This document shows positions 35,618 to 64,000 of a stretch of DNA of 64,000 bases, in pieces (positions within the stretch are counted from its first letter, which is position 1; each line of letters starts with the position of its first letter). Under the pieces are notes generated by a model. The model saw only the letters and a program-made list of their open reading frames with translations, did no database searches and was not told the origin of the DNA. The translations under genes were made by a program, and so were the position numbers. Source of the DNA: a phage; the sequence record PZ445451.1; one strand, 5' to 3'.

Positions 35618-38392
35618 TTAGTTTATCAGTTTATTTATGTCTGGTAAAAGATTTATTTCACCTAAGAAATCACCTTCACCTTCCTCTAGCCAACTCTCAT
35701 ATGCTTGTGCATGATTATAGTTACCATCAAAAGAATCTGCAACAAATTTTTCTACAGTTTTTCGAGATGTGCCAGCGCCAAATACACCAAGTTTAATACT
35801 ATTGATCGGTAAAGTGGTGCTTGTTGGTACTTTCTCTGTTGCAACACGGTTGATATCTATAATCTCCTGTACGGTTGTGTTCCATTGTAAGCATTTAACA
35901 CAACGGGTATGCGCTACATACAGTAGGTTTCGCTCTGCCTCTTCCAGTCCTACCCATTCACCAGTTTTTTTATCATAATTGGAAGGAAAATCATTAGCAA
36001 CAATAACCTGATCCCACTCCAAACCTTTAGACTTGTGTGCTGTAGTCAATGTGACTTTTGCTGTAGGAGAATTTCTATGCGTTCTAAGTGTATGTGCTAT
36101 AGTGTTTGCCTTGCCAGAAACTACGATGTTTAACAAGCGTTTAGCATCTGGATCAGCCTCTGCACACTCAACAAATTCATTCCAGTCTGCGTAAGGTAAT
36201 ACAGTTTCATGTTTTACTTTCTCAATATCTCCTCTCCGAAGAGCATTAACACTATCTACCATAGAGATAAAATCCCTGGTATCTACGTTAATAATAATTT
36301 CTTCCCCATCTGCAATACGATCCATTGCCTCCATAAGCAAGGTTAAATTCTTGCGAAAGATGATAGTGTAAGGTTTTGTATAGTCTACAACATCTGATTT
36401 GTAGCTACCTACTACAGTATCAAAGCCTTTACCAACCAAAGGATGACGCAAAGGTTCTTTATCGCTTAAAATCATATTGGCAATGTTTGCCACTTTGGGG
36501 CCAAAACGGAAGCAAGCAGTTAATGGAAGCTCTGCCCCATACTTAGCTGTTTCAATCATCATATTAGAGCTACCTCTAAATTGATAAATGCAGTTGTGGC
36601 TAAGAATTTCATTGCCAAAGAAGTTAGCAGTATCCTCTACTTCAATATCATAATAGATACCCTCACTATCTACAATGTCCACAATCTCTTCTGCCGTTAC
36701 AGTATCACCATCTTTTACCAACACAGACATGCCTTTAAACAAACCCGCTGCCGGAATTAAGTTATATTTGGCACTGTTCACAGAGGACATGCATTCTTTT
36801 AAAGATGCAAACGGAACTATTTCAAGGATCTTTTGTGCAAAACTCAATGCTTCACGATAAGAATTGAAATATTTACGTACACGGTAACGACCTTCCAATT
36901 TAGCAGCACTTACGCTTACACCTGCTTTAATCAGTGAAGAATAGATCGGCATTTCACTTTCTGTCCACTCAAAACTAACTTGTGTTCCTTTACAACCTTG
37001 TGCTCGCAAAGTCACTGTTAGCATTTTTCTTTCATCTACTGCACAATTGATGCTGTGCCAGTGTGGATAAGCAAAATGATAATCTTTATCCTCTAAAAGT
37101 TTAAAACCATTTTGTCCGAATTGTTCAAAGATGTTATTGATCCTTTCTTGATTAATGCCGCGTGAACTTGCTTCAAATACACAAGTAGGAATGCCATATT
37201 GTAAACTGTATGCCATTTCTTTTTCCATAGCAGCTTCACGGTTTTCAACAATATCCAACACCCATAATTTCTGTGCTTTTTCAGAACGTGTACGTTGCCC
37301 CAGTTTAGAAAAACCTTCTTTATCATCGAATTTGTTAGTGATCCCTACTCGGAAACCTAAATCTTTCCTCCACATTAGGTATACCACCATCTGATCATCT
37401 TTCAGAACATAGGATGAAGCCCAAATACGATGGTTATGTGTCATATCTAAAGTTTTACCTGTGGCAGTAATAATATTCCTACCTTTTGTACGTGTAGATA
37501 AAGTCTTATTTGTTACTTTTCTAAATGTAATTTTACCATTAGAATAAGACTCTACCTTATCACCGATTTGTAGGTCTTTCATTGTAACCTGACCATTCTC
37601 GGTATTAAGTACCGTGTTTTCCGACACACATTGGAATTCATCGCCCACTACCACAATTTGTTTTGCAGATTTAGCATTTCGCAGAATAGACAAGAATGCA
37701 GGGTTAACATCCTGGAATTCATCACCAAAAATAATGTCATAACCAAGATCAGCACCTGATAACTCAAACAATTTTACATAGGTGTCATGCGTCATCAAAG
37801 TATCTGTGTTAGGATCAATGCGCTCTCGCCACAATTGTTTTGCATACTTAACTACTTCTGTAATTAGTTTGTGTTCGTTAATACCTTTTCTTTTAATATC
37901 TGCAAGATGTACACCAGGGAAATGTTTACGGCTGATAAAAGGATCATCCGAAAATTCAAACTTACCTACGGTTTGCTTGATCATTAAACCAATCATAGCA
38001 CGAGTTAAAAGTGTTTTCCCTCGTTTATCAATAAGATTATTAATCTTAAATTTCTTTGCTATCTCACTACCTGTACCTGCAACGTTAACATACTGTCCTT
38101 CTGGTCGTGACAGTTTTGCACGTAAACGATGATCCAGGAATTGATAGCAAATGGAATGCAATGTACGGCATTCTACATTTGGTGGCATCTTACGCCGTGC
38201 TTCTTCTGCCATGCTTTTATTGAAAGCTAAGTAAAGAATGCGATCTTCTGTACTGTTAGCCAGCAAATAAAGTGTTGACGTTTTGCCTGATCCAGATTTA
38301 GCTTGGATAGTTAAAAAACGATGGTCTGGAAAAGCCTCCTTAATAGCTGTTTGCTCTTCTGTTGGAGTAAAACTCAACTCTTTCTTAGCCAT
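35618..38392 (-). CDS. UvrD/Rep-family (SF1) DNA helicase interrupted by an intein
   Basis: Walker A AKSGSGKT, motif II IIFGDEFQD, motif III split as VVVGDEFQ / CIYQFRGSS by a 346-residue insert; start set at ATG after AGAGAGG. Confidence 0.85.
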   Translation of the reverse strand: MAKKELSFTPTEEQTAIKEAFPDHRFLTIQAKSGSGKTSTLYLLANSTEDRILYLAFNKSMAEEARRKMPPNVECRTLHSICYQFLDHRLRAKLSRPEGQYVNVAGTGSEIAKKFKINNLIDKRGKTLLTRAMIGLMIKQTVGKFEFSDDPFISRKHFPGVHLADIKRKGINEHKLITEVVKYAKQLWRERIDPNTDTLMTHDTYVKLFELSGADLGYDIIFGDEFQDVNPAFLSILRNAKSAKQIVVVGDEFQCVSENTVLNTENGQVTMKDLQIGDKVESYSNGKITFRKVTNKTLSTRTKGRNIITATGKTLDMTHNHRIWASSYVLKDDQMVVYLMWRKDLGFRVGITNKFDDKEGFSKLGQRTRSEKAQKLWVLDIVENREAAMEKEMAYSLQYGIPTCVFEASSRGINQERINNIFEQFGQNGFKLLEDKDYHFAYPHWHSINCAVDERKMLTVTLRAQGCKGTQVSFEWTESEMPIYSSLIKAGVSVSAAKLEGRYRVRKYFNSYREALSFAQKILEIVPFASLKECMSSVNSAKYNLIPAAGLFKGMSVLVKDGDTVTAEEIVDIVDSEGIYYDIEVEDTANFFGNEILSHNCIYQFRGSSNMMIETAKYGAELPLTACFRFGPKVANIANMILSDKEPLRHPLVGKGFDTVVGSYKSDVVDYTKPYTIIFRKNLTLLMEAMDRIADGEEIIINVDTRDFISMVDSVNALRRGDIEKVKHETVLPYADWNEFVECAEADPDAKRLLNIVVSGKANTIAHTLRTHRNSPTAKVTLTTAHKSKGLEWDQVIVANDFPSNYDKKTGEWVGLEEAERNLLYVAHTRCVKCLQWNTTVQEIIDINRVATEKVPTSTTLPINSIKLGVFGAGTSRKTVEKFVADSFDGNYNHAQAYESWLEEGEGDFLGEINLLPDINKLIN
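36593..37630 (-). mobile_element. Intein in helicase motif III
   Basis: Begins CVSENTVLN, block B THNH, ends YYDIEVEDTANFFGNEILSHN followed by Cys; excision rebuilds canonical GDxxQ-IYxFRG. Confidence 0.65.
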
Positions 38393-50326: not shown

Positions 50327-50445
50327 GCGTATGATAATCATTCTCATTTGTAAATGAGAATCATTATCATTTAATTATGTAAGTGATAATCATTCTCAGT
50401 AAGAGAATGAGAATCATTAGCAAATGAGAATTTTTCTCATTTAGA
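50327..50445. promoter_or_regulatory. Cluster of Fur-box-like palindromes
   Basis: GTATGATAATCATTCTCATTT-GTA-AATGAGAATCATTATC near-perfect palindrome; GATAATCATTCTCA...GAGAATGAGAATCATTA; AATGAGAA-TTT-TTCTCATT; 13-15 of 19 identity to GATAATGATAATCATTATC. Confidence 0.45.
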
Positions 50446-59745: not shown

Positions 59746-60089
59746 TATTCTTTTTTCACGATGGAAACAACACGTAAAGAATAGGCGTAAAGGTGGCGTA
59801 AAACCATCTAAAACCGACTGTAACCGCTTAAACAAGGTAGGAATGATTAATCACCTTACCAGGGTGAAAAAGCTGTTATAAAGCTACCTAGAGCGTTTAA
59901 AGCACATAGGGAATAATTTGCTTTTTATCTTGCCTTTTATCCTGCTTTTGATTATTATTATGGAACGGGCGGCACCTGGGGACAGGGGAAGATAATCACC
60001 GGAAGATCCCGCTATATATTGATAGCTAATACCTATTAAACAACAAAACATCAAAGGAATAAACTATCAAATCTTTACAATCCTACCTA

Positions 60090-60150
60090 TTGACACAGGA
60101 TCACCCTTATACTAATATGTATCCCGTAGGGCGGGAAATGGTTTCCCGCT
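60090..60150 (+). promoter_or_regulatory. Promoter plus 5' stem-loop unit (PeSL-like)
   Basis: TTGACA-17-TAATAT, hairpin GCGGGAAA-TGG-TTTCCCGC 60130-60150. Confidence 0.7.
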
Positions 60151-60168
60151 TGATATAGGAATCATACC

Positions 60169-60402
60169 ATGATCGAACAAATTAAAAGCACTACACCAAA
60201 TGTTAACGGCAATGTTTCACACTTTATCGGTGATAATGAAAGGGGCACACCATACGCCGCCGTAACCGTGCAACCTAATGGCGATTATTGGTTTACCGTG
60301 TACGGATCATACTCTTTCGGACGCCCGGCACATGATAAGATCTTGCAAGCGGTTAAACCTGCGGGGAAGAATATCACAGCAGAAAAATTTTATAAAAAAT
60401 AG
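60169..60402 (+). CDS. Early protein, unknown function
   Basis: 77 aa ORF. Confidence 0.55.
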   Translation: MIEQIKSTTPNVNGNVSHFIGDNERGTPYAAVTVQPNGDYWFTVYGSYSFGRPAHDKILQAVKPAGKNITAEKFYKK

Positions 60403-60403
60403 C

Positions 60404-60432
60404 TTGCTTTATTTCTTCTGTTAACTTATAGT
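60404..60432 (+). promoter_or_regulatory. sigma70-like promoter TTGCTT-17-TATAGT
   Basis: Acceptable -35/-10; downstream GTAGGGC start conserved but hairpin degenerate. Confidence 0.4.
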
Positions 60433-60477
60433 TATCGCGTAGGGCAAACAATTTTAAACGGTAAACGAGGAATCACC

Positions 60478-60861
60478 ATGAGCAATATCATCAACCTGGC
60501 AGCGACTGTAAACGGTAAAGATTTTAACGGCGCTGTAGACCGTGATCCTATGTGGTGCTTATCAGTGTTTAAAGGCGACCTGGTTGAAGTTAGAACAACC
60601 GAAGGCTATAGCGATGATTATAAATGCGAGATCCATTTACATAACTGGTACACGGGGAAAACTTATGCGCTGAATCACGCATTTATCGGGAAAATTGAAT
60701 ATCGCGAAATGATCGACGAAGAAACGGGGCAAGATTTTAGCGATTATGTTTATATCCGTTCAGAAACATTAGCCGAACGCTTGATCGAGAAAATGAAAGC
60801 AAAAAATAAAATTAATTTAGCTCATTGGCTTGATATAACAAATGATCCGGCTTACAAGTAA
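60478..60861 (+). CDS. Early protein, unknown function
   Basis: 127 aa ORF, RBS ACGAGGAA. Confidence 0.55.
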   Translation: MSNIINLAATVNGKDFNGAVDRDPMWCLSVFKGDLVEVRTTEGYSDDYKCEIHLHNWYTGKTYALNHAFIGKIEYREMIDEETGQDFSDYVYIRSETLAERLIEKMKAKNKINLAHWLDITNDPAYK

Positions 60862-60876
60862 ATAACATTTCACACC

Positions 60877-60903
60877 AGGGCGCACAAAGCGCCCTTTCTT
60901 TTT
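60877..60903 (+). terminator. Rho-independent terminator AGGGCGC-ACAAA-GCGCCCT + TTCTTTTT
   Basis: 7 bp GC stem and T-rich tail ending the early gene array. Confidence 0.65.
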
Positions 60904-61106
60904 ACCTAAATAAAGATGATAGCTTTTACCTATCAAAAACGTTCACCGAAAAAAGTGAATAGATCGCGGTATCGAGCTAATCAAGGAGCAGATGAACAAC
61001 CATACCATGAAGATCATAAGGCGCTTACAACGTGTTTTAGACCGCTTATTTTTAATTTCTCAATGTAACTATCGGGCAAAAACAGCCTTTTTCTTGTCTT
61101 TCCTCT

Positions 61107-61182
61107 TAAATGATAATCATTCTTATTTATAGCTGATTATTTATGCAATAAACTGCATAATGCAATAATGATAATCATTCTT
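61107..61182. promoter_or_regulatory. Two Fur-box-like sites
   Basis: AAATGATAATCATTCTTA (61108-61125) and AATAATGATAATCATTCTT (61164-61182); the latter matches the Fur consensus at 16 of 19 positions. Confidence 0.45.
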
Positions 61183-61573
61183 AACTTATGACCATCTAAC
61201 CTATAAAATAATAAGTTATCTAACTAAATTAAAACTAATTATCCCACCTTTATTTATAACTTACTTTTACTATCTCATTGATAACCTTATATTAAACAAC
61301 AATAACCAATATAAATCATTACTAAGCTAACTATAATCTATCTAACCCTTAAAACTATAACTATAATCTATCGAATTGTTGCACAAAGTAACTATTAAAT
61401 TGTTAGTAACTTTACTAAATAATTAATATCCTATCTATTTATGATCTAATCTTTACCTTACTATCTATTACCTAAATAACCATTTCATACAGAAATTATT
61501 TCATACAATAACTATAACAAGAAATATAATTCGCAAGCGTATCATTAGCAGCCTATGCCGGACACATAGGCGG

Positions 61574-61719
61574 CTAATAATAACGCAACTACACACCCCA
61601 CATAATAACCATCACCGATAGTTATTATTTGTGCTTATGTAGCTTGCAACAATTGCAAGCGCAACAATATACATGGTATATTGTATCCCTTACATTGTTG
61701 CGGTGCGTTATTATTAGCT
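61574..61719. repeat. Long nested imperfect palindrome
   Basis: Outer arms GCTAATAATAACGC (61574-61587) and GCGTTATTATTAGC (61706-61719); inner CGCAACAATA / CATTGTTGCG; GCTTGCAA-CAA-TTGCAAGC at 61643-61661. Confidence 0.6.
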
Positions 61720-62045
61720 AATGTTTGGAACATTGGCTATAATATAAGCTACATATAATAAGCTATACAATAATAAACATAATGAATAATGACACTGATG
61801 ATCATAATGCGCCACCTTCCAGGGGGCGCTATGTGAACACAAAGAAATCTTTCTTGTCAAGAAAAATATCACCATTATTGCGCAAAATTATTTATATCTG
61901 AACAGATGATTTTTCATACTATTGCCCCCTATAGTATCCCTATTTGTTGTAATGTATTCCCCTATTTGTTGAGCCTACTCTCTTAAAAGCGCAATAAATT
62001 AGAATTATCTTGATTTTTAGGTAGTTTTATAGTATAGAAAATATG

Positions 62046-62064
62046 CAAATGATAATCATTATCA
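62046..62064. promoter_or_regulatory. Fur-box-like site
   Basis: GCAAATGATAATCATTATC matches GATAATGATAATCATTATC at 17 of 19 positions. Confidence 0.5.
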
Positions 62065-62240
62065 GCTATCTTCCACAGGTGGCACTATTTCACGCCAGAT
62101 CATTTCATTTGGCAAGGTGTATATAGATGTTTAGAAATGCCAAGCCATTGATTTACTTAGAATTTATCTGTTTTGTTGTGAGTAGTGCCTTTCTTGCTCA
62201 GAAAATAATCAAAAGTCTTATAAGTCATTGAATGATAATG

Positions 62241-62259
62241 CAAATGATAATTATTCTCA
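62241..62259. promoter_or_regulatory. Fur-box-like site
   Basis: GCAAATGATAATTATTCTC, 15 of 19 match; preceded by another AATGATAAT half-site at 62232-62240. Confidence 0.4.
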
Positions 62260-62380
62260 TTGATATTTGAGGGGGACGGTCGGCAGAAATCGGGGGCGCT
62301 AAAAATCGCGTTAAGCACCTCTCGCAAGCGAGCAGTATTTTGCGGCAAGTTATTGATATTATTGGCTTTACGCTTATGGA

Positions 62381-62490
62381 AAGGGGGTGTGTCGAAATAA
62401 ATCGGGTATACCGGAAAATTTTTGTGGCATAGATATTTATTTGTCTATATTATGTACAAAGGGGTGTGTTAAAAATAATAGGTATATATA
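62381..62490. repeat. Two copies of a roughly 30 bp direct repeat
   Basis: AAAGGGGGTGTGTCGAAATAAATCGGGTATA (62381-62411) and AAAGGGGTGTGTTAAAAATAATAGGTATAT (62459-62488), about 80 percent identical. Confidence 0.5.
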
Positions 62491-62717
62491 GAATAATTGA
62501 TAGGGAAATCCTATACTAATCCCTCCATTAATGATGTTCCTAGGTTGCTGTTCTTGTAACAGATGAAAAGACGCTGTATGATGTGTGGCATGAGACGTAA
62601 ATTTATAAGATGCAAATAATGCTTGCATTGAATAGAAATGTCTGTATAGTGGTTTGCATACCGCGCACGACGCGTTTCCATTTTCAATAAAATGTTAGCA
62701 TTATGGGGAGGTAGAAA

Positions 62718-63179
62718 ATGAGACAACTATCTATACTGGAAGCACATGTGCAATGTGTTGCAGATTATGTCAAAGAACACTCAAGTTTGTTGGATGTAAC
62801 CTGTGCAGTGCAAAATGATGTAGGTATTGTCTGTGTGCGACATATCTTATCTGAAACTCGTTATGAAGTATTTCGTGCCAAGTTGTTTGGATGTGATCAA
62901 GTGCATGTAAACTTCTTGGATTCCAATTTTCGTTATGCTTTAGAAAATATTGATGATTATCTTCCTTGCTCTCCGACCGGATATGTGATGATAGCAGCAA
63001 ATGAAGTAACACCAAACAACAGTGAGCGGGAAACTTTGTTACGGAAGAAAATACGCCAACTGCAAGTGTTGAATGAACTGAAAGAAGAGATTGAAAAAGA
63101 ACTGAAAGAAGATTTTGGTATGCTTCCAAAAGACGCTTTGAAATGGTTTGATGAACTAGGAGAGGAAAGTTATGAATAA
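62718..63179 (+). CDS. Hypothetical protein with C-terminal coiled coil
   Basis: 153 aa ORF after GGGGAGG RBS. Confidence 0.55.
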   Translation: MRQLSILEAHVQCVADYVKEHSSLLDVTCAVQNDVGIVCVRHILSETRYEVFRAKLFGCDQVHVNFLDSNFRYALENIDDYLPCSPTGYVMIAANEVTPNNSERETLLRKKIRQLQVLNELKEEIEKELKEDFGMLPKDALKWFDELGEESYE

Positions 63180-63348
63180 AGAAACTACTGTGTACTTAGT
63201 AACAAAGAATACCCCAGGCTGGAGCCAATGCAGCACTGTCCCTTACAAGATCTGTGCAACATTAGAACTAGCACAACGTGCAGAAGCAGAAGTGAATGCC
63301 ATGCAATACAGCTATGGTGAAATCATTCCTTTTACTCTTGAACAATAA
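63172..63348 (+). CDS. Small ORF (58 aa), not in ORF track
   Basis: ATG inside the last codons of the upstream gene, after GGAGAGGAAAG. Confidence 0.4.
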   Translation: MNKETTVYLVTKNTPGWSQCSTVPYKICATLELAQRAEAEVNAMQYSYGEIIPFTLEQ

Positions 63349-63359
63349 GGAGTTGTGTA

Positions 63360-63812
63360 ATGTTTGAAATTGGTAAAGTGTATCGTTTTAAAAACCCATC
63401 TTATATCCGTAAGTTTGCTAACGTGTCTGAGTGCAATAGCAGGATTGCTTCTTTTTTAGGTGATTCATATTTTCGTGTATTAGATGTGGATGATTGGTAT
63501 GGTGTCACTGCTTTGCAATCCTTAGCAGGAGAACAAGAAATTATCGCTCAAAATGAAGGAGACTTTCTTCAGTGTTACACGTTGCTTGCAAAAAGTGAGT
63601 TTGAGTATTTTGTAGAAGTCTTAGAGGAAGCACCAAAAAGTAAACACGAAGAGAAATACCTGCTTGTAGTGGATGGAGTTCCGATCATGGAAACCATCTC
63701 CCGTGAGGAAGTTGAAAAAGAGGCGAAACGTTACAAGCTGGATCGTACACAGAGTGTAGTTGAAGTCTATTCTCTTGTTGGTGTTGCAGATATTAGTGTG
63801 AACATCGTATAA
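63360..63812 (+). CDS. Hypothetical protein
   Basis: 150 aa ORF after AAGGAG RBS. Confidence 0.55.
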   Translation: MFEIGKVYRFKNPSYIRKFANVSECNSRIASFLGDSYFRVLDVDDWYGVTALQSLAGEQEIIAQNEGDFLQCYTLLAKSEFEYFVEVLEEAPKSKHEEKYLLVVDGVPIMETISREEVEKEAKRYKLDRTQSVVEVYSLVGVADISVNIV

Positions 63813-63860
63813 TATATGTGTAATGACAGATACATTCTTCGTGTATCTGATAAGTCTCCT

Positions 63861-64000
63861 ATGTTTGACTGGCGGGGTTGGTGGCTACTAGCTCCGATGC
63901 AAGGTCTGACAGACGTGGAAAAGGAGGCTTATGTGTATACAAAAGAAGAGATAGAAGATAGCCTTTATTTGACAGATAACATTAAGAATGGTATCTTTGA
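63861..64000 (+). CDS. Hypothetical protein, 3' truncated by window edge
   Basis: Open frame from ATG 63861 to window end; weak RBS. Confidence 0.3.
   Translation, partial: MFDWRGWWLLAPMQGLTDVEKEAYVYTKEEIEDSLYLTDNIKNGIF

Follow-up and report, generated by a model that had tools for sequence, protein, structure and literature searches.

The closest described systems by genome form are T7 and T3, which have linear genomes with short direct terminal repeats (DTRs) and carry cis elements in the unique DNA just left of the repeat. For T7, a DNA intermediate that contains both a hairpin and the terminal repeat is reported in PMC4281155 (citing Chung and Hinkle 1990), a DNA hairpin being implicated in the duplication or processing of the repeat, and T7 maturation is started by pausing of RNA polymerase at the concatemer junction (PMC3276506). 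In the T7 genome, we located an imperfect palindrome centred ~190 bp left of the right DTR, with 19-nt arms that are 79% complementary (z = -2.05). In lambda (cosQ/cosB) and SPP1 (pacL/pacR), conserved cis sites flank the cleavage region, a feature shared with the locus described here. The small terminase or IHF binds the lambda and SPP1 sites as short stretches of duplex that work without intrastrand pairing, and lambda has cohesive ends, not a 342-bp terminal repeat. The parvovirus/AAV ITR is T-shaped, about 125-145 nt long, and combines a long outer stem with internal palindromes and short repeated motifs in the stems. Finally, the pRNA of phi29 is a multi-helix junction of ~120-174 nt closed by a long 5'/3' helix. 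Its gene lies within a few hundred bases of the genome end, and the RNA acts in packaging.

We analysed a 64-kb stretch of phage DNA (the window), of which positions 60900-62700 are 100% identical to Escherichia phage PaulScherrer (Bas60, MZ501100.1; Justusliebigvirus, Stephanstirmvirinae); a window position equals the MZ501100.1 position minus 32675. Cis-acting palindromic DNA beside phage genome ends is a known kind of element. What is new in the element of this locus is its size, its branching, its covariation and its breadth across two phage subfamilies. Our literature search found no paper describing it, and in the records inspected it was not annotated as such, the sequence under the match carrying nothing or small hypothetical ORFs; one Vequintavirus record labels the counterpart 'terminator'.

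The palindrome of T7 is a single weak hairpin ~190 bp left of the DTR and shares no sequence with the element, which is a covarying branched structure of 187 nt lying 251-282 bp from the repeat. Because the T7 palindrome is weak and unrelated in sequence, we rejected it as a direct analogue and regard the precedent as positional only. Moreover, T7 processing depends on pausing of T7 RNA polymerase (PMC3276506), for which the PaulScherrer group has no known equivalent. The element shares the ITR architecture, with an outer stem enclosing at least two internal palindromes in about 125-145 nt, but not the ITR location. The AAV ITR occupies the very end of a single-stranded DNA genome, is present at both ends and supplies the 3'-OH primer, whereas the element occurs once, at an internal position at least 589 bp from the terminus, in a double-stranded genome of 150 kb.

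A branched palindrome in a non-coding gap

The element lies in a non-coding gap of 1.86 kb (60862-62717) that separates two blocks of small genes on the + strand. The flanking genes are small hypothetical ORFs and, upstream, a homologue of T4 gp30.8. Every ORF within the gap has 63 aa or fewer, and the preliminary description, which saw no convincing ORFs in the surrounding 1.8 kb, was essentially right on this point. The PaulScherrer GenBank record annotates two tiny hypothetical CDS in the gap (46 aa and 39 aa), and the small ORFs annotated in other records differ from these and do not agree in strand. A coding role of the element itself was rejected, since the ORFs across it are just 30-32 aa long and indels of 19-22 nt between relatives break the frame; the indel lengths in helix P4 also speak against coding, not being multiples of three. 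The kilobase 61001-62000 has the lowest GC content of the window (0.298). The coordinates of the element, its helices and the neighbouring features are given in Table 1.

Table 1. Features of the element and of the surrounding terminus region, in window coordinates
Feature	Position	Strand	Description
Intrinsic terminator	60877-60895		At the end of the upstream gene block; sole terminator-like site in 60400-62800
Full conserved element	61538-61724	+	Covariance-model limits; P0 hairpin plus four-way junction
P0, GC-rich hairpin	61551-61571	+	GCCTATG/CATAGGC, 7-nt loop CCGGACA; immediately 5' of the outer stem
P1 5' arm, outer (closing) stem	61573-61587	+	GCTAATAATAACGCA; perfect 15-nt inverted repeat
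P1 3' arm	61704-61718	+	TGCGTTATTATTAGC; perfect 15-nt inverted repeat
Junction strand	61588-61598	+	AACTACACACC; invariant alignment columns
P2, short helix	61589-61593 / 61638-61642	+	CTACA/TGTAG; carries P2b and hairpin 1
P2b and hairpin 1	61599-61633	+	Basal CACA/TGTG, then 9-11 bp stem, 3-nt loop
P3, perfect 19-bp palindrome	61642-61660	+	GCTTGCAA-N3-TTGCAAGC; 8-bp stem invariant in 25/25 homologues
P4 hairpin	61661-61702	+	GCAACAAT/ATTGTTGC; apical extension; 3' bulge with conserved CTTACA
Two direct repeats	61941-61971	+	TATTTGTTG; abut the DTR left edge (...TGTTG|AGC...)
Direct terminal repeat (DTR)	61972-62313		One copy in this collapsed assembly; edges are the physical genome ends, by transfer from relatives
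Three G-rich repeats	62269, 62381, 62458 (span 62269-62482)	+	GGGGGTGTGTCGAAATAAATCGG type; straddle or follow the DTR right edge

The preliminary description had reported a nested palindrome with 14-bp outer arms at 61574-61719 and an inner inverted repeat, GCTTGCAA-CAA-TTGCAAGC. The outer arms are real and perfect over 15 nt, with 116 nt between them, although they had been placed one base too far right; the inner repeat was recovered as P3. In the whole window, these outer arms are the sole perfect inverted repeat of at least 14 nt with a loop of at most 200 nt. First-order Markov simulations give a chance expectation of 0.025 such repeats per 64 kb, or 0.2 with the base composition of the local AT-rich gap. 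Folded as single-stranded DNA, 61574-61719 formed an outer stem around three hairpins at -33.7 kcal/mol (z = -7.4), and none of 200 shuffles folded as well. The complementary strand folded equally well (z = -9.1), and the fold of the whole element had z scores of -7.45 on the + strand and -9.12 on the - strand. The covariance model matched the element with 161 bits (E = 5e-36), as a single true copy in 64 kb.

The locus had also been called cruciform-capable. As a description, a simple cruciform falls short of the object, which measures 187 nt and consists of an upstream hairpin plus a four-way junction. P3 (8 bp + 3 nt) and hairpin 1 (9-11 bp + 3 nt) are short-spacer inverted repeats that fit the cruciform type, and their flanks are AT-rich. 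With its outer arms so far apart, the entire structure is not extrudable in one step as a simple cruciform would be. The 15-bp closing stem, spanning 116 nt, would form only after the inner hairpins or in single-stranded DNA.

In the 25 sequences aligned, the 7 pairs of P0 are kept throughout, and three of them covary with both sides changed (GC<->CG, CG<->GC, UA<->CG). P0 was rejected as an intrinsic terminator because no T-run follows it on either strand. P1 is likewise paired in all 25 sequences, with 4 covarying pairs and no G.T or mismatch cell. Its compensatory sets are ACGC/GCGT, AGCC/GGCT, CCGC/GCGG and ACAC/GTGT, together with a change from A-T to T-A in phage arall, and its distal 10 bp (GCTAATAATA) are nearly invariant. 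The junction strand opens a largely conserved tract, AACTACACACCCC (61588-61600), of which the CAACTACAC part is invariant; ACACACCCC (61591-61599) is the reverse complement of GGGGTGTGT. The stem of hairpin 1 has been swapped wholesale between lineages with pairing kept (ATAACCATC, GAAACTATT, ATTACTATT, GTGACTATT, GCAACGATT and others), and both sides have changed in 6 of its 9 pairs. The 3-nt loop of P3 is variable, and the exact copy of P3 is unique in the window. P4 varies in length by an indel of 19-22 nt and contains three covarying pairs. In individual folds of most relatives, P2, P3, P4 and P1 are joined with 0 or 1 unpaired base, making a near-perfect four-way junction.

Covariation and reach across phage lineages

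The region is present in ~130 GenBank phage genomes. We aligned 25 distinct homologues from Justusliebigvirus, Phapecoctavirus, Klebsiella and Citrobacter relatives, IMG/VR and metagenomes; pattern scans had yielded 4 true homologues among 38 loci in IMG/VR and 10 among 18 loci in metagenomes. In the alignment fitted to the covariance model, 95.8% of pair cells are paired, compared with 23-48% when partners are slid, 19 pairs are altered on both sides, and the covariation score of 0.239 was reached by none of 500 shuffles. The fitted alignment is biased towards the structure, and an unfitted MAFFT alignment shows the same picture: 92.8% of pair cells are paired (25-48% with slid partners), 16 pairs are altered on both sides, and the covariation score of 0.204 (0.02-0.05 with slid partners) was again reached in 0 of 500 shuffles. 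As the homologues are related by descent, these pair-cell counts overstate the number of independent events. Covariation occurs in 5 of 7 helices, and RNAalifold independently recovers the same helices, as do individual folds. P2 and P3 never vary and are therefore uninformative on pairing; their invariance suggests sequence-specific recognition. The preliminary description had named lack of conservation in relatives, together with dispensability, as the outcome that would speak against a functional structure; the structure is conserved with many compensatory changes.

The element extends to a second subfamily. The rV5-like phages (Vequintavirus) were reached through a 77-aa neighbour gene, the T4 gp30.8 homologue being of no help with synteny beyond Klebsiella phage FBKp34. 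In the syntenic non-coding region of the Vequintavirus phage WalterGehring, the covariance model gave a match of 38 bits (E = 3e-8). In the WalterGehring element, which folds with z = -9.5, a GC-rich hairpin precedes outer arms that are perfect over 18 nt and, as in the window, 116 nt apart. The element is present in about 120 Vequintavirus records, and that of rV5 has a 33-nt insertion in the distal part of an inner hairpin. FBKp34 gave no covariance-model match, and its syntenic site holds a nested palindrome of different sequence (z = -8.9), composed of outer arms of 27 nt, an inner pair that is perfect over 16 nt and one more hairpin. The rV5-like element is thus homologous and the FBKp34 element analogous. 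Pairing of the element is kept by selection across two phage subfamilies.

Position beside the genome termini

The DTR positions for PaulScherrer were transferred from relatives. The annotated right DTR of phi92 (FR775895.2), 343 bp long, maps to 61972-62313 at 96.2% identity. Position 1 of the BME3 record corresponds to window position 62312, and the DTR of BME3 was determined with PhageTerm to be 342 bp (PMC12210895). At the homologous place, identical sequences stand at both record ends of WPEC4 (Phapecoctavirus-like, 328 bp) and of the Klebsiella relative phi1_175008 (343 bp); in the ESCO5 record, a search for an end duplication found none. The window has a single DTR copy in mid-record because the BASEL genomes were assembled as circles through fusion of the terminal repeat (PMC8594841). 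According to PMC12695924, the genomes of phiWec186 and phiWec190 have DTRs at their ends. In their records, the element stands 15-20 kb from the record ends, which is at odds with DTR-ended records.

The gap between element and DTR is 251 bp in phi92, 253 bp in the window, 267 bp in WPEC4, 275 bp in phi1_175008 and 282 bp in BME3. Across three genera, the element stands 251-282 bp left of the DTR in a fixed orientation, the gap length being approximate and the intervening sequence poorly conserved. Like a T7-type pac region, it occupies unique DNA a few hundred bp left of a short DTR. From the right physical end of virion DNA, it is 589-775 bp away (in the window, 62313 - 61724 = 589). In FBKp34, the corresponding gap is about 168 bp, with the DTR placed by its edge motifs alone. 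The record of the Vequintavirus phage bov10K2, which holds a single copy of the DTR region, opens at a site that looks like the right DTR edge (L075 9002/9003), 658 bp past the element.

In a multi-genus alignment of the gap, conservation is concentrated in a few islands, namely the element, the two edges of the DTR, Fur-box-like sites and the G-rich repeats. These define a compact set of conserved terminus parts. The left edge reads ...TGTTG|AGC(A/C)... and the right edge ...CGCGTT(A)|AGCACCTCT...; both share GTTR|AGC. The next four bases are ACCT at the right edge in every lineage; at the left edge, this holds outside Justusliebigvirus. At the left edge, BME3 has four copies of TATTTGTTG, and WPEC4 and phi1_175008 read ..ATGTTG| and ..TGTGTTG|, respectively. 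The core of the G-rich repeats is the inverse of the junction strand of the element. Exact copies of GGGGTGTGT number three in 64 kb, one on the minus strand within the element, where it forms the conserved unpaired junction strand (61591-61599), and two on the plus strand at 62384 and 62461, which is 71 and 148 bp past the DTR. WPEC4 and phi1_175008 have equivalents of these sites at +71 and about +141-148 after the DTR. WPEC4 carries TGGGGTGT both in its element and at +141, and phi1_175008 carries a GGGGTGG variant in both its element and its +71 site. Exact 7-mer matching did not recover this motif shared across the DTR in FBKp34 or Vequintavirus. The shared motifs suggest that one factor may bind to the left and to the right of the repeat; alternatively, the G-rich sites past the DTR could be early promoters.

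Candidate roles of the element

The preliminary description had listed an origin, a recombination or resolution site, or a packaging signal as possible functions. The general idea of a functional cis-acting structure is supported by its conservation, its single copy and its place beside the DTR. The conserved position in several genera favours the packaging or terminus option from that list, while packaging and replication are not distinguished from each other. We tentatively favour, at somewhat less than an even chance, a reading of the sequence evidence in which the element would be a cis-acting DNA signal for concatemer processing or packaging in the genome-terminus region of rV5-like and phi92-like myoviruses. 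In concatemers, the AT-rich surroundings or passing replication forks would allow the hairpins to form, an event whose occurrence in vivo is assumed in this model. The folded or protein-bound element would then be recognised by, or serve to assemble, the machinery that cuts at both DTR edges, and the same machinery would duplicate the repeat and start or end packaging. The inverted copy of GGGGTGTGT in the element and the direct copies past the DTR would permit looping as in SPP1 pac: with a protein bound to the element and to the G-rich sites, the repeat could form a loop between them and the two cut sites would be presented. Beyond the left end stand small ORFs, a gene for a putative DNA-binding protein and one for a transcription factor, which have the look of early genes. 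If they are early, it is probably the left end that enters the cell first and is the last to be packaged, and packaging would begin at the end that holds the element.

The phi92, phAPEC8 and rV5 groups are widely isolated and present in phage-therapy collections, and the literature found contains no description of how their short DTRs are recognised, cut and duplicated. Should the folded DNA itself prove to be the signal, it would be unusually elaborate among the structural signals for packaging or the terminus in tailed phages. It could also serve in practice to locate genome ends in the many assemblies opened at arbitrary positions, and the covariance model could be used to annotate it.

Proximity to the terminus fits a role in replication or priming equally well. 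In such a role, the hairpins would form on unwound or single-stranded DNA at an origin, priming or fork site, where a lineage-specific initiator or primosome protein would act and synthesis would copy the terminal repeat. The element lies in the most AT-rich kilobase of the window, it is under a Watson-Crick-only constraint, and both of its strands fold. Its outer stem around inner palindromes, ~146 nt in all, also recalls the parvovirus terminal hairpins that prime replication. The helix bases carry iteron-like motifs: four copies of ATTAGC lie there within ~180 bp in alternating orientation, and their place is taken by TGTTCG in FBKp34 and by GGCAACTAT in Vequintavirus. This lineage specificity suggests a co-evolving binding protein. 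However, ATTAGC is not enriched over the whole window, DnaA boxes (at most 1 mismatch) are absent from 60862-62717, and no recognisable initiator gene is adjacent, the neighbours being the small ORFs and the gp30.8 homologue mentioned above. An origin would also not need a fixed position and orientation relative to the DTR. We consider this role unlikely, though with an appreciable share of the probability.

It is improbable that one strand of 61538-61724 encodes a structured non-coding RNA of ~150-190 nt, whether regulatory or associated with packaging like the phi29 pRNA. The multi-helix junction, the covariation in most helices and the invariant unpaired segments (CAACTACAC, CTTACA, CCGGACA) would suit an RNA. 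A perfect TATAAT (61525-61530) stands 7 nt 5' of the start of the model match, but it lacks a -35 partner and is not conserved outside Justusliebigvirus. No conserved sigma-70 promoter was found, promoter-like sites occurring at shuffle frequency. Transcription from upstream would be ended by the strong terminator at 60877-60895, and no terminator follows the structure on either strand, P1 lacking a T-run as P0 does. ARAGORN detected no tRNA or tmRNA in the window. Rfam, which includes the phi29 pRNA family, gave no relevant family for 60000-64000 at E <= 10.

The pairing itself also speaks against RNA. The 1367 pair cells include 12 with G.T on the + strand (0.9%), 22 with A.C (1.6%) and 36 with other mismatches, and the 29 pairs of P0, P1 and P3 contain neither G.T nor mismatch cells. 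P4 is the sole helix with recurrent wobbles, all of them G.T on the + strand, which would fit an RNA. Since A.C on one strand equals G.U on the other, a transcribed strand could be betrayed by an excess of G.T over A.C or the reverse; no such asymmetry was found, and neither strand is favoured. The loops of hairpin 1 and P3 measure 3 nt in 25 of 25 sequences, and loops of this length suit DNA hairpins and cruciforms better than RNA. The lack of G.T enrichment and the constant 3-nt loops suggest that selection acts on Watson-Crick complementarity in DNA rather than on RNA. As for a transcribed, pRNA-like RNA associated with packaging or the terminus beside the genome end of a terminase-type myovirus, we regard it as very improbable. 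The element resembles the phi29 pRNA in its multi-helix junction and its place near a genome end, but lacks an Rfam match, a conserved promoter or terminator, and tolerance of G.U. The phi29 genome is protein-primed, whereas the PaulScherrer group has terminal repeats and, presumably, terminase-type packaging; to our knowledge, pRNA-like packaging RNAs have been described in phi29-like phages only.

Finally, the repeats might be dimeric operators or architectural protein-binding sites that act as duplex only, for example in early or late transcription control at the genome ends, for which P3 as an invariant 19-bp perfect palindrome (typical of a dimeric operator), the almost invariant distal 10 bp of P1 and the near-consensus Fur boxes and G-rich repeats around the element could be cited; this is quite unlikely, because hairpin 1, P2b, P0, P4 and inner P1 change freely yet stay complementary, which a duplex site does not need, the arms of P1 are 116 bp apart, and the branched architecture persists in FBKp34 and Vequintavirus despite their different sequences.

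Fur-box-like sites

The window was searched with the E. coli Fur-box sequence, and near-consensus matches were found in excess of expectation. GATAATGATAATCATTATC was matched 6 times at ≤3 mismatches, against 0.01 expected, and the Fur core AATGATAATCATT 30 times at ≤2 mismatches, against 5.9 expected. The matches are concentrated in two places, one intergenic region (50.3 kb) and the terminus region. Two of the boxes lie in the direct terminal repeat (DTR), and both are seen again in the Phapecoctavirus-like phage WPEC4, the Klebsiella phages phi1_175008 and FBKp34, and Vequintavirus. Such sites suggest that the phage genome ends are under iron- and Fur-dependent control, or that host Fur has an architectural use there.

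Features of the window and of two related sequences (L074, Klebsiella phage FBKp34; L075, Vequintavirus WalterGehring)
Feature	Sequence	Position	Remark
Near-consensus Fur boxes		50330-50420; 61109-61121; 61164-61182; 62045-62063; 62243-62261; 37072-37090	Match to E. coli Fur consensus
DTR left-edge motif	..TGTTG|AGCCTACTC	61963-61985	
DTR right-edge motif	..CGCGTT(A)|AGCACCTCTC	62300-62325	
Three G-rich repeats	AAGGGGGTGTGTCGAAATAAATCGG type	62269-62293; 62381-62405; 62458-62482	Overlapping and beyond right DTR edge
GC-rich hairpin	GCGCCACCTTCCAGGGGGCGC	61810-61832	Between element and DTR
bas60_0145, annotated CDS		60992-61132	46 aa
bas60_0146, annotated CDS		61782-61901	39 aa
FBKp34 nested palindrome		L074 4536-4713	Syntenic position; sequence differs from window element
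Putative FBKp34 DTR, 342 bp		L074 4882-5223	Inferred from AGCACCT at both edges
WalterGehring homologous element region		L075 8163-8348; 8419-8510	

Edges of the terminal repeat and their surroundings

The left and right edges of the DTR are similar in motif, and in other genera AGCACCT is found at both edges; the right edge is ambiguous by 1 nt (62312 or 62313). These edge motifs are probably the sites at which terminase cuts or nicks. The G-rich repeats at the right edge, whose position is kept in other genera, could serve as terminase-binding sites or early promoters. The GC-rich hairpin on the other side of the DTR has a comparable counterpart in WPEC4 (CCGCCACAGGCGG), and no T-run follows it in the window sequence.

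Counterparts of the branched palindrome

The FBKp34 palindrome contains a repeated motif of its own, TGTTCG/CGAACA, in 6 copies. A homologue of the window element, the conserved branched palindrome, is present in rV5-like phages. In WalterGehring it is flanked on both sides by GCAAACGAATGGCATGG, and GTGTGTAAA iterons are located 70-170 bp downstream. One record, that of Murica, has a terminator annotated at the spot of the rV5-like element.

Annotation of the gap and records of relatives

Over the DNA annotated as bas60_0145 and bas60_0146, related records carry other tiny ORFs on varying strands. The two CDSs are probably not genes. Direct terminal repeats have been reported at the ends of the phiWec186 and phiWec190 genomes (PMC12695924), yet in LC739535.1 (phiWec186) and LC739539.1 (phiWec190) a distance of 15-20 kb separates the element from the ends of the record. 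Either these records were opened away from the physical ends, or the termini of that group differ. Several GenBank records named "Campylobacter phage" (MG0656xx) are marked UNVERIFIED, with C. jejuni given as the host. Over this region they match the genomes of E. coli phages of Justusliebigvirus or Vequintavirus at 95-99% identity, and they look mislabelled or like contaminants.
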